Shown here one piece after another: positions 7,451-62,231 of a stretch of 64,000 bases of DNA (position 1 is the first letter of the stretch; each line of letters begins with the position of its first letter). The position numbers were made by a program, and so were the translations under genes. Under the pieces are notes generated by a model, which was given only the letters and a program-made list of their open reading frames with translations, had not been told where the DNA came from and made no database searches. This DNA is from Octopus vulgaris (lineage: Eukaryota): positions 104,780,001 through 104,844,000 of the forward strand of contig OX597820.1 in assembly GCA_951406725.2 (NCBI GenBank), given 5' to 3'.

Positions 7451-7547
7451 TATATATATATATATAATACAATTGCAGCGTGGAAGGTGTTCGTAAGCCA
7501 TTTAAGAAACACAAAATCCGTTAGACTGACTTCAACATTTAAATTTA

Positions 7548-7600
7548 ATTTGCCAAAATATTTTCGTCGCTTTGAGACCGCGACCTGTTCACCGATAAAA
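7548..7600 (-). ncRNA. Minimal hammerhead-like motif with G3-C8 core
   Basis: ttttatcg GTGAACA g gtcgc-ggtctcaaa-gcgac GAAA atat TT tggcaaa. Confidence 0.65.
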
Positions 7601-7611
7601 ATAAAGCACGG

Positions 7612-7667
7612 AATTTTGTCAGTGAACAGATCGCGGTCTCAAAGCGACGAAAATATTTTGGCAAATT
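7612..7667 (+). ncRNA. Minimal hammerhead-like motif with G3-C8 core
   Basis: aattttgtca GTGAACA gatcgc-ggtctcaaa-gcgac GAAA atat TT tggcaaatt; stem I tttgtca/tggcaaa. Confidence 0.7.
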
Positions 7668-7801
7668 AAATTGCAATGTTGAAGTTAATCTAAAGGTTTT
7701 TGTGTGTTTCTTAAATGGCTTACAAACACCTTCTACGCTGCAATTGTTTTCGTTCCAGCACAGAATCTCAGATCAGGTCACTTGCTATGCAAGTACATCT
7801 C

Positions 7802-7893
<92 letters not shown>

Positions 7894-9684
7894 ATAGAAT
7901 AGAATTGAATTGAATTGAATTGAATTGAATTGAATTGAATTGAATTGAATTGAATTGAATTGAATTGAATTGAATTGAATTGAATTGAATTGAATTGAAT
8001 TGAATTGAATTGAATTGAATTGAATTGAATTGAATTGAATTGAATTGAATTGAATTGAATTGAATTGAATTGAATTGAATTGAATTGAATTGAATTGAAT
8101 TGAATTGAATTGAATTGAATTGAATTGAATTGAATTGAATTGAATTGAATTGAATTGAATTGAATTGAATTGAATTGAATTGAATTGAATTGAATTGAAT
8201 TGAATTGAATTGAATTGAATTGAATTGAATTGAATTGAATTGAATTGAATTGAATGAATTGAATTGAATTGAATTGAATTGAATTGAATTGAATTGAATT
8301 GAATTTGAACTTGAACTGAATTGAACTGAACTGAACTGAACTGAACTGAACTGAACTGAACTGAACTGAACTGAACTGAACTGAACTGAACTGAACTGAA
8401 CTGAACTGAACTGAACTGAACTGAACTGAACTGAACTGAACTGAACTGAACTGAACTGAACTGAACTGAACTGAACTGAACTGAACTGAACTGAACTGAA
8501 TCTGAACTGAACTGAACTGAACTGAACTGAACTGAACTGAACTGAACTGAACTGAACTGAACTGAACTGAACTGAACTCGAACTGAACTGAATTGAATGA
8601 ACGAACTGAACTGAACTGAACTGAACTGAACTGAACTGAACTGAACTGAACTGAACTGAACTGAACTGAATTGAACTGAACTGAACTGAACTGAACTGAA
8701 CTGAACTGAACTGAACTGAACTGAACTGAACTGAACTGAACTGAACTGAACTGAACTGAATTGAACTGAACTGAACTGAACTGAATTGAATTGAATTGAA
8801 TTGAATTGAATTGAATTGAATTGAATTGAATTGAATTGAATTGAATTGAATTGAATTGAATTGAATTGAATTGAATTGAATTGAATTGAATTGAATTGAA
8901 TTGAATTGAATTGAATTGAATTGAATTGAATTGAATTGAATTGAATTGAATTGAATTGAATTGAATTGAATTGAATTGAATTGAATTGAATTGAATTGAA
9001 TTGAATTGAATTGAATTGAATTGAATTGAATTGAATTGAATTGAATTGAATTGAATTGAATTGAATTGAATTGAATTGAATTGAATTGAATTGAATTGAA
9101 TTGAATTGAATTGAATTGAATTGAATTGAATTGAATTGAATTGAATTGAATTGAATTGAATTGAATTGAATTGAATTGAATTGAATTGAATTGAATTGAA
9201 TTGAATTGAATTGAATTGAATTGAATTGAATTGAATTGAATTGAATTGAATTGAATTGAATTGAATTGAATTGAATTGAATTGAATTGAATTGAATTGAA
9301 TTGAATTGAATTGAATTGAATTGAATTGAATTGAATTGAATTGAATTGAATTGAATTGAATTGAATTGAATTGAATTGAATTGAATTGAATTGAATTGAA
9401 TTGAATTGAATTGAATTGAATTGAATTGAATTGAATTGAATTGAATTGAATTGAATTGAATTGAATTGAATTGAATTGAATTGAATTGAATTGAATTGAA
9501 TTGAATTGAATTGAATTGAATTGAATTGAATTGAATTGAATTGAATTGAATTGAATTGAATTGAATTGAATTGAATTGAATTGAATTGAATTGAATTGAA
9601 TTGAATTGAATTGAATTGAATTGAATTGAATTGAATTGAATTGAATTGAATTGAATTGAATTGAATTGAATTGAATTGAATTGA
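7802..9684. repeat. (GATA)n followed by a ~1.8-kb pentamer satellite (GAATT)n-(GAACT)n-(GAATT)n
   Basis: GATA 7802-7892; GAATT ~7903-8304; GAACT ~8305-8783; GAATT ~8784-9684. Confidence 0.97.
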
Positions 9685-11620
9685 AAAATGTAACAAAAAG
9701 AAAATAGAAACTACACGTCGAAATGTAAGGGGAAAGTAGGAAGAAAAATGAGCGAAAATGCACATTGGAAATAAAAAAAGTAAAGGTTTTTATGAAAAGT
9801 AATGATACATATGTACAATTAGATGAACTGAGGTAGGAATAAAGGTAATGAAGGTCATTATTGTGAATTGTTAAAGAGATTCAAAGGCATACCGGTTTCG
9901 TAAAATTACTGATCACTGCTTTGAATGCGTACCGATTACCGAATGGTGTCGGATCTACTAGTCCCTGAGTAAAAAGATTATGTATAAGGGAGGTAAGTAA
10001 TTCTGGATTTGGTAAATATAAATTTGTAATGTGAATGGTTTATGGGATGTATGGGGGTTAATGGTATTAATTGAAAGGTTTGTAGTGTTCTGTATTAAGA
10101 TATGTGTTCATATTGAGTTGTGGAAGATATTTATTGATGAAAGTTGCCTCTTTATTCATTCTTTGTTCTGTGAACATTGATAGAGTGGAAATTTAGGAAA
10201 TTAGGATTAAGGTTTCTAGCACACCTTTCTATGTGTTCACTGACCTGTATCTGTCTGTATTGTGGGTGGCGGATTTGTTCTTTGTGGAGAGTAGTTCTTC
10301 GACGGAGTGATATTCCTGTTTGGCCAATATAATGATTACCACACCCTAATCATGTAATGGCATAGAGTAGGTTTTCGAAGCCACGGGTGAAATTTGATTT
10401 AATCTTAAATATTTCACCTTGTTTAAAGTGGAATTCTGAACCCTCCAAAAGGTGGAAGCATGTACCACAGTTAGGTCGACCACATTTTTTCAATATTTTT
10501 TTCAATGATTTCGGTTGCATTTTGCCTTTGATAATTTTATGTGAGCCTAAAATTTTATTCATTGTTTTATCTTCTGTGGGGATGGGTAGATTTTGGATGA
10601 TAATGTTGAAGGCTTCATTGTTTCTAGGGTTATGTGTGGCGATGTATGGGAGTATTTTAAAGTCTGGTGTAGTATTTCGGTTAACTTCCCTTAATGTTCG
10701 TATATCTATTTCCTTAGCTTGTTTAATGCCATCATTTATTGATGATATTGTGTAATGTCTTTTGATTAGTATAGATCTGAGTTCACGGAGTCTTCGTTCA
10801 CGAGTATAGGTGTCCGAAACTATTGTACAGATTCTTTTCGCTAGCTTATAAGGTATATTAATTTTTATGTGTTTGGGGTGGCATGAGTTGAATAATAAGT
10901 ATTATTTAGAACCTGTAGGTTTATAGAAGATGTCTGTTTCGATGTGGTTATTGACTATTTTATTTGGATGTCAAGAAAATGGAGTTATTTACTGCTGTGC
11001 TCCATGGTGAATTGTATGTTGCTGTATTGTTAAGCATTATTTTGAAATCGAGGAGTTTGTCCATACTATCTTTCCAAAGTATAAATCAATTGTCCAAATA
11101 CCTCTTCCAGTTCTCCTTTAAATAGCAATGAAATGAGGTATCGTATTTTTGTAATGATGATTGGTATATTTCAAGTTCTAGGTAACCCATTACAAGGTTC
11201 GCAATCACTGGAGCAGCTCGGTTTCGCATTGCAATTCCACAATTTTATCGATAGTAAACTATATCGAACATGAAATAGCTGTTCAGTAGGATGAATTTGA
11301 TTGCTGCAATTATGAATCTGAGTGCTGCAATTATGAAAGTGATCGCTTCTATACCATAATTGGTAATGTGTTAATAAAAAGCGTCAAGTGCTTTATTTCT
11401 ACCTTTTGTAGGACAGTATTCACTTTTGTGTTTTACTATTGAGTCATCTTCCCCGGTGTAGTTGTGAAGTGCTTCTGTGTGGCGTAATTTTCTGCAGAAA
11501 TCCAGTGTTATCCTTAATTTCATTCGGGTTCGATTTGCGAGGGTTTGGTGTAAACTTTAACCCCTTTGCTAGAATTTTAGTTTGTAAAATACTTAAAATT
11601 TTCTTTGATAAGTTGTACAT
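9685..11620 (-). mobile_element. Penelope-like retrotransposon, Neptune-type (RT + GIY-YIG), decayed
   Basis: Minus-strand motifs LAKGLKFTP; GIAM..RAAPVIANLVMGYLE; WKRYLD; TDIFYKPT..SCHPKHIKINIPY; CGRPNCGTC; HYIGQTG; many frameshifts. Confidence 0.85.
9879..9926 (-). ncRNA. Minimal hammerhead with G3-C8 core in the PLE 3' region
   Basis: attcaaagca GTGATCA gta-attt-tac GAAA ccgg TA tgcctttgaat; 10-bp stem I with one bulge. Confidence 0.75.
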
Positions 11621-11624
11621 TTTG

Positions 11625-12267: not shown

Positions 12268-12712
12268 ATGTAACATATGGTATAATTTTAATCAGGGCAA
12301 AGTTTTGCTATTTCTCCGTACACTGAAAAAAATTAGGAACAACCTTAATCGATTTTCGAACCTTATTGGGTTCTCATCAGAGGCGTCCACATCATTCTGA
12401 CGCCTCCAGAGAAACAAGCAGCCAAACTGTTTATATACTCAACATATGAAGGAGTTTCTAATTTGCATACCGAAAGTGTTTAACACTCTATAAATACCAA
12501 CGGCCTGCCAACGGGGATCCTAGTCCACACAGTACCAAGGTATGATATAATAAATATGTAACATATGGTATAATTATAAATAGGGAAAATTTTAGCCATT
12601 TCTCCGCAGACTGAAAAATGATGGACCACCTTAATCTATTTTTGAGTCATATTGGGTTCTCATCAGAGGTGTCCACATCATTCTGACAGCCTCCAGAGAA
12701 GCAAGCAGCCAA
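12268..12712 (-). mobile_element. Tandem ~286-bp hammerhead-delimited repeat (non-LTR retrozyme-like), ~1.5 units
   Basis: atgtaacatatgg at 12268 and 12556; hammerheads at 12343-12383 and 12629-12669; homolog at 58790-59200. Confidence 0.7.
12343..12383 (-). ncRNA. Minimal type I hammerhead ribozyme, intact core
   Basis: cct CTGATGA gaacc-caataa-ggttc GAAA atcgat TA agg. Confidence 0.85.
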
Positions 12713-32387: not shown

Positions 32388-32627
32388 CAAATTTATAGAA
32401 AAACAAAGATGAAGTCAGGTGTAAGAACAACAAGCAAGTGTATTAATTAGACTTGTGAGAAGAGGACAGAGCAGTGTGGATCGTCAGATCGTAAAACACG
32501 TGGCAAATCATACCCGGGCTCAAACCACAGCGGATCGATAAATGCTACAGCAGAGAACTCTTCATGTGATGAAACTACAAGTCATGAAACTGGTGCATCG
32601 GATAATACTCAGAGGAAACCGAGGGTT

Positions 32628-34085
32628 TTGTGGCCTGCTGCTAATGAGAAAGTGAAATATAAAGAGTTTGAAAACAAGGTTTGTCGGGCTCTTTATAAAA
32701 TGACAGGCTCTACAGTGGAGAAACTGGGAAAATTATCAAGCTCAATATACGATATAGGAAAAGATTTATTTGGAATAAAAGAGAATATCCGACTAGTGAA
32801 AGGAAAGTGTGGACCAAGCAAGAGGATCAGAAAAATGCAGCAGTTGAGGAAGGAAAAGTCCGACTTAAGAAAGCGATGGAGATGTGCTGCACTAGTTGAG
32901 AAACCTGGCCTTGCGTTACTGTATAAAGATTTGAAGAGGAAATGTCGTTATGTGCAACGACATATCCGCCGATATGAGCGTCGAAAAGAAAGTAAAAGGA
33001 CTCGGGGGCAGTTTCTGAAGGACCCGTACGGGTTTACTAAGAAGCTGTTCACTGAACCGAAGAGTGGTACTTTATCGTGCACTAAAGAAGAATTGGATGC
33101 TCATATCAAGGAAACCTACAGCGATCCGCACCGTAACCAGGCGCTGCCACCTCTACATGGGTTAAATCATCTCTCAGGACCTGATATCGAATTCCAGATT
33201 GGGGACATCAGGGAGAGAGAGGTGAATGACTTCGTAAGAAAAGCTAGAGCAAAGAGTGCCCCAGGAGGTCATGGCGTCTCATATAAAGGCTACAAGTACT
33301 GCAATCGTCTGCGAAAGAAGCTCTTCGTCCTTATCCGACAACTGTGGCGCGAGGAGACTATAGTAGAGGATTGGTGTAAGGCAGAAGGTATATACCTGCC
33401 GAAAGAGGCCAATGCAAAGACCATAAAACAGTTTAGGCCGATATCCTTATTGAATGTGGAAGGCAAGATCTTTATGGAAATTCTGTCGAGGAGAACAGTG
33501 GCATATTTACAGAGTAACGGATATGTTGATGAATCTGTTCAAAAGGCCGGAATCCCCGGGATCCCTGGATGCGTTGAACACTGTTTTTCGATTTGGAAAG
33601 CTATCCAGGATGCCAAACAGAACAAGAAAAGTCTGAACGTGGTATGGCTCGACCGAGCTAACGCGTATGGTTCAGTGCCACACAAATTACTAATAACAGC
33701 CATGGACCACTTCCACATTCCTGACAAAGTGATCAAAATAATGAGGATGTACTATGACAGTTTCGAAATGAGGTTTACAACTGAAAATTTTACAACAAAT
33801 TGGTACCGATTGGAGGTTGGCATTGCTGCTGGCTGTACAATATCTGCCACGTGGTTTATCTTAGTCATGGAGTTGATTTTGAAAGGTGTAGTATTTTCGG
33901 AACAAATCGCCCATGTACAATCGCCTAAGAAAGCCTTCATGGATGACGTGACACTTCTAGCTACAGATAAACAAATCATGCAGAATGCCCTTTTGAGATT
34001 AGACGAACTTGTAAGGTGGTCAAGGATGCGATTTAGAGCAAAAAAGTCGCGTAGTCTGACATTTGTTAAGGGAGTGCAGAAATAA
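32628..34085 (+). pseudogene. Reverse transcriptase domain of the HERO-like element
   Basis: KSAPG; FRPISLLNVEGK; WLDRANAYGSVPH; GIAAGCTIS; AFMDD; premature stop at 34083-34085. Confidence 0.9.
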
Positions 34086-34145
34086 TTTTAATTTCGAATA
34101 TCTGAAGAAAGCATTCTAACAGTCAAGGAAGAGTCCGTCAAGAGC

Positions 34146-35525
34146 TTGGGACGAGTATACGCTGGAACATTGTCAGACAGAAGTCGTGGGATTGAAATTA
34201 TGAAACAGGCCGAGACTGGGTTATCAGCGATTGATGTTTCGAAGTTACCAGGTAAATATAAAATTTGGTGCTTGCAGTTCGGCTTGTACCCGCGACTTGC
34301 GTGGCCACTTTTAATATACGAAGTAGCATTGTCACGAGTTGAAAAGATTGAACAAAAATGTAATGTGTTCATTAGAAAGTGGCTAGGTCTACCTCGTATG
34401 TTGAACAGCTCAGCTCTTTATCGTAAAAGAGGTTCGTTACAGTTACCAATAGCATCAATAGTCGAAATATATAAGTTGGGGAAGATACGGACGGTCATGA
34501 TGTCTTCTCTTATACACAGAGATATGGTGGGAGCAACGCAGAACCATCGGAAAGGATTTGGTTTTGGCGCAGATCAGTTCAGACCGTTTGCAAGCATGAT
34601 GCCGTGTGAACGCAGATCTGTTGTTAGCAACAGCGTCAAAACAAGAGAAGCAGAGAGAAGAGAGCTTCATTTGATCCGATGTGTTCATCAAGGTCAGATG
34701 ACGAGATGGGAAGAACATGTTGTTGAGGGGAAGATAAGTTGGGATGAGATGTGGAAGTGGACGACATCTCGGCTGAGTTTCCTGATTCGTTCATCTTATG
34801 ATGTTTTGCCATCACCTACGAATCTAGTAAGATGGAACGTCTTAGAGAATGACATCTGCAAATGTGGAAAGGTCGGTACACTAAAACATATTCTTTCCAA
34901 CTGTTCATTAGCATTGAACAGGTACACATGGAGGCACAACTTGGTCCTTAAGGTTATCTTCAATGCTATAAAGAACCAAATTCATCTCAACAACACTGAG
35001 GAAAAATCGTTAAAAGTACCATCAAGAGAGTTCATTACCTTCGTGCGACCAGGTCAGCAGATCCATTTCAAGAAGAAGACCAAGAAACTTCCTGAGAAAA
35101 ATGAAAAGTGGAACGGCTATTGGGAGGTAACTGCAGATTTACCTGGGTGCCAGGTTTTCTTTCCCATCCCAGTTTCGAAAAAACCAGATATTTTGATGTG
35201 GTGTGAAAGAAAGAAAGTTGTAAATATAGTCGAGCTAACGGTTCCTCACGAAGATAATATGGACGCCGCTCGAGCTCGAAAATTAAACCGTTATGAAAAC
35301 CTCCTCGAGGAATGTGAAGACGCAGGCTGGAAAGCGGAACATTTTCCTATCGAAGTCAGATGTAGAGGGTTTGTAGGACACAGCGTGAGACGACTGTTGT
35401 TATCGTTAGGCCTAACTCATCGTAAAGTCAATACCACCATCACTGATATCCAATCTACAGTGGAGAAGGCTAGCCACTGGATTTGGTTAAAAAGAGACGA
35501 TGAGCGATGGCTAGAAGTATATTGA
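34146..35525 (+). pseudogene. Thumb, zinc knuckle and RLE endonuclease of the HERO-like element
   Basis: CKCG..GTLKHILSNC; RYTWRHN; KPDIL..IVELTVPHE; K..RY; PIEVRCRGF. Confidence 0.9.
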
Positions 35526-61428: not shown

Positions 61429-62231
61429 TAGATATATACATATATATATATACGTGTGTATGTGTATTAATTGGCAGAAGTTACAAAATGACGAGCTTTC
61501 TGCAAATGGTATTTATCTGTCTATTATAGGTTGAGAGAAACAGAGAGAGCTATACAAATACACTTACACATGCATAAATTACACACAAACGCACGTACAC
61601 ACACAAGAGCACGCACGTGTGCGCACGCGCACGCACACACACATACACACATACACACACATACACGAGCTTAGCGGATTAGATGGCAGGCGACTCTCTT
61701 GAGCTCATCCATCCTTTGACAGATTCTATTTTCCGTCTAAAAATGTGCCAAAAATACTAGTTTAGTTGCCAACGTCTCGATTATGCAACAAGTAGTGCAT
61801 GTGTTATTACGTATGTATAAATAAATGCACTAATACATAAGTGTGGCCGATGGAGTCACAGATCTTACAAACAGAGACCTGCTACAGATAATCATGTATT
61901 TTCGTCATTCATCCTCTTGACCTCAGGAAAGGAGTTTATTAATTTCCAAAAAGTACAAAACACTTATCTCCTTCAAAGTAGGATCTTCTGATTTCAATGT
62001 ACTTTTAGCGCTCCCCTGGCAAACAAAATGTCTAATTCAAAATTTCTCTCGAAATCAAAATTTGAAAAGCGATAGCGAAACCGGTTATTATGTTGGAAGA
62101 AAAAATCTCATTTTGCACAATATTGTATAATACTTTTGCTATTATGATTCTAATATATTCTTTAGTCTTATAAAACAAATATTCTCTGCTTTTCATCTTA
62201 TTTCTTTCCATGTATTATATATATATATATA

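Follow-up and report, generated by a model that had tools for sequence, protein, structure and literature searches.

In the hammerhead ribozyme, a Watson-Crick pair between core positions 3 and 8 positions the ribose of nucleotide 8 for its role as general acid. Hammerheads of Penelope-like elements (PLEs) were described by Cervera and de la Pena in 2014 (PMC4209133). The PLE motifs have a type I topology, lie in the 3′ repeat behind a frame for reverse transcriptase (RT) and GIY-YIG endonuclease (EN), carry G10.1-C11.1 and a short palindromic stem III, and occur as several families per genome. With a palindromic stem III, their activity is weak and they act as dimers (PMC4209133). Natural U3-A8 in place of the canonical C3-G8 has been published (PMC3088659; PMC4209133, in PLEs of Schistosoma mansoni), and the function of hammerheads in PLEs is stated as unclear in PMC8557442. 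Here we analyze a motif from a 64,000-nt stretch of Octopus vulgaris DNA (assembly GCA_951406725.2, contig OX597820.1, positions 104,780,001 to 104,844,000 of the forward strand; the whole stretch is called the window). It lies about 175 nt behind the broken RT-linker-GIY-YIG frame of a Neptune-like Penelope element, shares the topology, position, G10.1-C11.1 pair, palindromic stem III and several families per genome of the PLE motifs, and has a G3-C8 core.

The core sets this locus apart from the described systems. None of the 56 representative motifs in Fig. S3 of PMC4209133 starts its core with G or A, whereas purine-3/pyrimidine-8 is found here; the window lineage also lacks the extra nucleotide after A9 of those motifs and has a stem II of only 2–3 base pairs (bp). 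The variants of Perreault et al. 2011 (PMC3088659) share natural 3-8 covariation (U3-A8), a 2-bp stem II and core insertions such as U13a. That paper, as far as available, names only U3-A8, whereas G3-C8 and A3-U8 occur here in hundreds to thousands of retroelement copies that can be placed on a tree. The same swap has been engineered: C3G/G8C partly restores cleavage in the PAc hammerhead of a Poseidon PLE, which is active only with the element's protein (PMC11167929), and in a full pairwise scan of another hammerhead the G:C swap was the sole rescuing double mutant in the 3-8 region (PMC9901934). Those are laboratory mutants with at least partial rescue; here G3-C8 occurs naturally. A3-U8, the more frequent of the two natural states here, showed no rescue in the scan. 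A natural G3-C8 or A3-U8 was not found in the searchable literature, which was partially covered, the one G3-C8 match being an engineered variant. Purine-3 cores are not mentioned in the available parts of PMC3884650, PMC6765202, PMC11014351, PMC6962438, PMC6155905, PMC10085705 and bioRxiv 10.64898/2026.07.22.740005. We regard the motif and its relatives as a real natural variant series of a known ribozyme, probably unpublished.

Re-reading of the minus strand at 9926–9879 confirmed the motif reported by the first-pass annotation, with G3-C8, G10.1-C11.1 and a palindromic ccgg. It reads attcaaagca GTGATCA gtaattttac GAAA ccgg TA tgcctttgaat, in which G3 is nt 9916 and C8 is nt 9911. Stem I has 10 bp and one bulged C, stem II has 3 bp and a 4-nt loop and is closed by G10.1-C11.1, and stem III is the palindrome ACCGGT. 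The hammerhead core U4 G5 A6, A9, G12 A13 A14, A15.1-U16.1 and H17 is present, and positions 3 and 8 form a Watson-Crick pair, but the literal canonical CUGAnGA with C3 and G8 is absent. Since the literal CUGAnGA is also absent from all 87 closest sister copies, the motif is filed as a hammerhead variant, and the separate class of ribozymes that had been proposed is not borne out. The cut site is predicted between nt 9890 and 9889. Searched with a strict descriptor that accepts every Watson-Crick combination at 3-8, the window has four matches (7592 minus, 9916 minus, 12380 minus and 62062 plus), and 6.36 Mb of its block-shuffled sequence have no match, the shuffle being approximate.

The 3-8 pair was followed on a tree of the elements, built with IQ-TREE from the last 440 nt of the open reading frame (ORF) in 43 natural copies, with the ribozyme left out. 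Eight truncated or long rows (L007, L026, L134, L140, L163, L170, L171 and L191) were omitted, and the change count stays at three in trees with or without them. The states of 13 rows were entered by hand, and L177–L180 were the outgroups, with no state assigned. On this endonuclease DNA tree three changes are needed among Watson-Crick 3-8 states, each at both positions. In the window's clade the G3-C8 lineages are basal, with A3-U8 nested inside the clade (89/95); a second A3-U8 lineage lies outside it (97/99). A single A3-U8 clade is rejected (approximately unbiased (AU) test, p = 6e-53); a single purine-3 clade is not (AU p = 0.108). One U3-A8 family forms a single long branch. Three double changes are counted under either topology. 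Rows with a mismatch at 3-8 are isolated copies in scattered places of the tree, and none of the mismatched states makes up a lineage.

Nine lineage representatives were then compared at the level of the fold. In 94.4% of cells the bases pair, and the 3-8 pair, which takes three forms, is kept in all nine. Each of the four stem I pairs has changes on both of its sides, while G5, A6, A9, G12–A14, A15.1-U16.1 and a non-G at position 17 are kept in 9/9. The covariation score was reached by none of 500 shuffles, and stems I and II with G10.1-C11.1 are supported; the representatives are related and were chosen by the analyst, which inflates this test, and two misaligned families (one U3-A8, one C3-G8) were dropped. 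Repeated double changes at 3-8 together with stem covariation around an invariant core point to a selected hammerhead fold, and on this comparative evidence the 3-8 pair is likely kept by selection. As sequence evidence for function, the repeated double changes on the element tree are stronger than the swap shared between two families, from which function had been argued before.

Sister copies of the window element make up a large family: a search of the 2.8 Gb genome gave 1,545 candidates, of which 40 were scored. The exact family pattern with positions 3, 7 and 8 left free had 87 genome matches and none in the control. By hand count, 71 of these are A3-U8 and nine are G3-C8; the other seven comprise two G-U, three A-C, one U-C and one A-G, and neither C3-G8 nor U3-A8 occurs among the 87. 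A Watson-Crick pair is kept in 80/87, which upholds the claim that the change at 3 and 8 is not random decay, and G3-C8 is a minority beside the dominant A3-U8, contrary to the earlier account as it was put. Alignment of the best 30 copies gave 13 with G3-C8, 15 with A3-U8 and two mismatched. Only 7 of 403 columns split the G3 from the A3 group, and position 8 is among these seven, with C in 13/13 of the G3 group and U in 15/17 of the A3 group; when copies are grouped by position 3, the chance of position 8 falling in the other six columns is about 1.5%. CpG decay as the source of the G-C to A-U change was ruled out, neither base being within a CpG.

Beyond the closest sisters, a purine-3 pattern anchored on CGAAACCGGTA had 342 genome matches versus four in the reversed control. 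The first 100, counted by hand, hold 54 A-U, 28 G-C and 18 others, ten of which carry A8, mostly with stems of U3-A8 families. An A3 pattern with a UY site had 1,082 matches versus one in the control; among the first 100, 96 carry U8. This set is the second A3-U8 lineage, which has different stems and long open frames (L142, 635 amino acids (aa)); such A3-U8 elements with long frames support a working hammerhead. U3-A8 is carried behind the same domain by two young families with many intact, near-identical ORFs, and C3-G8 was found in tandemly repeated units of about 360 bp (176 C3 matches versus three) and at window nt 12380. Because G-C, A-U, U-A and C-G are each observed, all four Watson-Crick 3-8 states occur in this genome. 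A young A3-U8 branch (L231–L260) keeps A3-U8 in 29/30 copies.

Several features of these relatives were seen in passing. The two U3-A8 families are Neptune-like and apparently recently active, with open frames of 811 aa (L061–L090) and about 753 aa (L145–L160); in the latter family GAAA contains an additional A, and the 3′ region runs to about 650 nt. The tandem repeat (L201–L207, G000:C1:20002278-20004542) carries one C3-G8 hammerhead per unit, resembles a non-LTR (long terminal repeat) retrozyme, and has the ACCGGU palindrome as well. In the young A3-U8 branch (e.g. G000:C18:33323614-33324015) stem I varies with compensation (aaacg/cgttt, aagcg/cgctt) and stem III is ACCAUGGU. In the related elements L177–L180 no hammerhead was found over roughly 600 nt downstream of the ORF; in L178 and L180 a CUGAUGA precedes short tandem repeats, and there is no GAAA box. 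A metagenome search with the endonuclease alignment gave one locus, with less than 100 nt behind the match and no motif in it. Within the window, a canonical C3-G8 hammerhead-type motif with an AUCGAU loop lies at 12332–12390 (minus), in a repeat family that differs from the neighbouring Penelope element, and has a degenerate upstream copy at about 12620–12680 (minus). A U3-A8 hammerhead-type motif without an adjoining ORF lies at 62050–62095 (plus); its gc-gata-gc stem II is that of the second A3-U8 lineage.

G3-C8 also occurs in a family of short elements, the 7548 family, represented in the window by an inverted pair. Each copy has a G3-C8 hammerhead-type motif (position 3 at 7592 on the minus and 7622 on the plus strand) with an extra nucleotide after A9, a 5-bp stem II and an AATATT palindrome. 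The unit starts about 25 nt before the core and usually occurs in inverted pairs. The family has 1,234 exact matches, with G3-C8 in 95 of the first 100 by hand count. In two loci (L107, L108) the inverted pair forms part of larger palindromic repeats, some 3 kb long, whose many copies inflate the count. No RT, EN or parent ORF was detected by tblastn in 50 loci (30 plus 20 further), nor an RT-like ORF in nine listed loci. In line with what had been claimed, the two G3-C8 families share no detectable sequence: blastn of the 7548 family against the 3′ region of the window family gave only short chance words (best E 0.033). Their architectures differ as well. From these sequences, an independent origin of G3-C8 in the two families is plausible.

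Two raw RNA runs contained 198 and 162 reads from family members, in both orientations, none of them at least 99% alike to the window copy. Position 3 is A in 44/51 and 35/36 reads, and position 8 is U in 44/50 and 35/35. Many reads come from one truncated copy, 39 and 14 of them with the same loose end at nt 9919. The family sequence is transcribed, probably by read-through. In contigs under two other organism labels both letters occur at both positions 3 and 8. Rfam hammerhead covariance models gave no match at E ≤ 10 for the window motif, and no hammerhead match for the canonical C3-G8 control at 12380 or the 7548 pair; a scan of the whole window returned repeat-driven microRNA matches only, among the 150 listed of 226. 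The motif had been said to be invisible to canonical-core searches. CUGAnGA descriptors do miss it by construction, but since Rfam misses the canonical 12380 motif too, its invisibility to Rfam is not caused by the 3/8 swap.

The placement of the motif in a Neptune-like element is supported by the coding sequence, whose parts are listed in Table 1 with the other features of this region. The RT-EN part has stops and frameshifts and is 59% identical in amino acids to an intact 811-aa sister; the upstream fragments correspond to residues 57–151 and 356–477 of that sister, the middle being missing. At the family stop codon site (about 10102–10100), TAA in most aligned sisters, the window copy has TAT. 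From this site to the motif start is 174 nt in the window copy, and to position 3 about 195 nt in sisters. The window ORF fragments alone have no Pfam match, and the intact relatives L142 and L174 match PF00078 (RVT_1) and PF01541 (GIY-YIG); through these relatives and the alignment to the 811-aa sister the family shows the single ORF of EN-containing (EN+) PLEs, with RT and C-terminal GIY-YIG. A CX2-5CxxC linker between RT and EN is a mark of Neptune and Nematis elements (PMC8557442), and CGRPNCGTC has this form. With the EN+ Neptune and Nematis elements the family further shares the DKG motif (in the intact sister), inverted 5′-truncated copies and microsatellite-rich insertion sites (PMC8557442). 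The comparison with these two clades was made with their descriptions in PMC8557442, and the family may belong to either. The copy in the window is itself a dead fossil, and it was on active master elements that selection acted. Elsewhere in the window, nt 32451–35525 (plus) hold a nearly intact non-LTR retrotransposon ORF in two pieces, not a PLE, in which RVT_1 (E 5.5e-17) comes before a section that holds a cysteine motif and possibly a restriction-like endonuclease.

Table 1. Features of the Penelope-like element and adjoining repeats in the window
Feature	Position (nt)	Strand	Basis or remark
Type I hammerhead-type motif, G3-C8 core	9879..9926	minus	sequence reading and strict descriptor
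3′ untranslated/pseudo-LTR region of element	9690..10100	minus	family matches end at about 9690–9730
Broken RT-thumb, CX4CX2C linker (CGRPNCGTC) and GIY-YIG endonuclease part of ORF	10100..10940	minus	
Broken N-terminal and RT fragments, same element	11026..11623	minus	similarity to intact sister
(TTCAA)n satellite adjoining element 3′ end (about 9690)	7895..9690		both ends read, middle inferred
7548 family: inverted pair, short non-autonomous element	7474..7800		

How might such a motif act? We consider it fairly probable that it is a slow, dimer-dependent and protein-assisted hammerhead that cuts element transcripts, with positions 3 and 8 constrained by geometry and not by base identity. 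Stem III would form between two motifs by pairing of their ACCGGU palindromes; the predicted energy of this duplex is −8.3 kcal/mol, and it is intermolecular in a cofold of two copies, as in double hammerheads. Any Watson-Crick 3-8 pair would keep the nucleotide 8 ribose in the place required of the general acid. The RNA, predicted from its sequence to be still self-cutting, would be cut after UH at nt 9890, which would process long tandem or read-through element transcripts in the 3′ repeat, and the element's own protein is probably required for cleavage beside the partner copy.

A number of observations weigh against cleavage, and many of them would suit its main rival, in which the fold is retained as a structural signal for RNA dimerisation or for binding by the RT-endonuclease, with little or no cleavage and the 3-8 pair serving shape. 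Stem II is short, at 2–3 bp, and the predicted dimer has GUGA paired with UUAC in its place. The youngest and most intact families are U3-A8, not purine-3. In the young A3-U8 branch most copies have a U inserted in the second core box: GUAAA or a variant replaces GAAA in 26/30 copies, with CGAAA in 4/30, so the core can drift in elements still spreading, here with compensatory stem I changes. All the other double mutants made in the 3-8 region in the pairwise scan, A3-U8 presumably among them, had low activity (PMC9901934), and A3-U8 would accordingly be weak. Insertion in vitro did not depend on hammerhead cleavage in the study of PMC11167929, where reads ending at the site were also absent; in the two RNA runs here no reads end at the site and there is no pile-up of read starts or ends, in about 6% of each run from standard cDNA libraries, which is a weak sign either way. 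Naiad elements thrive without canonical hammerheads (PMC8557442). However, the invariant core of the nine representatives is what catalysis would require, and G3-C8 is experimentally competent in a PLE hammerhead (PMC11167929). We hold a purely structural role to be possible, though unlikely.

It is improbable, in our judgment, that the ribozyme died in an ancestor and that the paired states are neutral subfamily markers carried by successful masters. In its favour, copy counts reflect few masters and not independent events, G-C to A-U takes only two transitions, branches between families are long (0.12–0.37 changes per site), and a single purine-3 origin is compatible with the AU test. Yet at least three double changes all end in Watson-Crick pairs, mismatches founded no lineage on the tree, and the stems turned over with compensation around an invariant core. 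A chance likeness of AT-rich 3′ sequence to a short motif is barely credible. When the G3 core is searched loosely, with a 6-nt loop, its matches show no enrichment (3,758 versus 4,571 in the reversed control), and the monomer folding energy of the window motif is ordinary and uninformative (z = −0.52); but the strict descriptor is silent in shuffled sequence, the position behind the endonuclease is homologous in many families, including those with the known U3-A8 core, and covariation and conserved position already contradict chance.

A wider claim is put forward tentatively, at somewhat less than an even chance: all four Watson-Crick 3-8 pairs may be used by working hammerheads in one animal genome, with repeated toggling of the pair among living Penelope lineages, and CUGAnGA searches would have missed G3-C8 and A3-U8 ribozymes in their thousands. 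Protein-assisted folding would then explain the tolerance at 3-8, and some Penelope clades reported as lacking hammerheads may carry such variants. The series of near-identical natural RNAs (G-C, A-U, U-A, C-G and the GUAAA insertion) makes the question directly testable. Natural covariation at 3-8, described as pyrimidine-purine, is extended here to purine-pyrimidine pairs present in many copies, and hammerhead censuses based on CUGAnGA undercount. On the element's own tree a tertiary core pair has repeatedly changed with compensation, and this is evidence from evolution for selection on active-site geometry in transposing elements.
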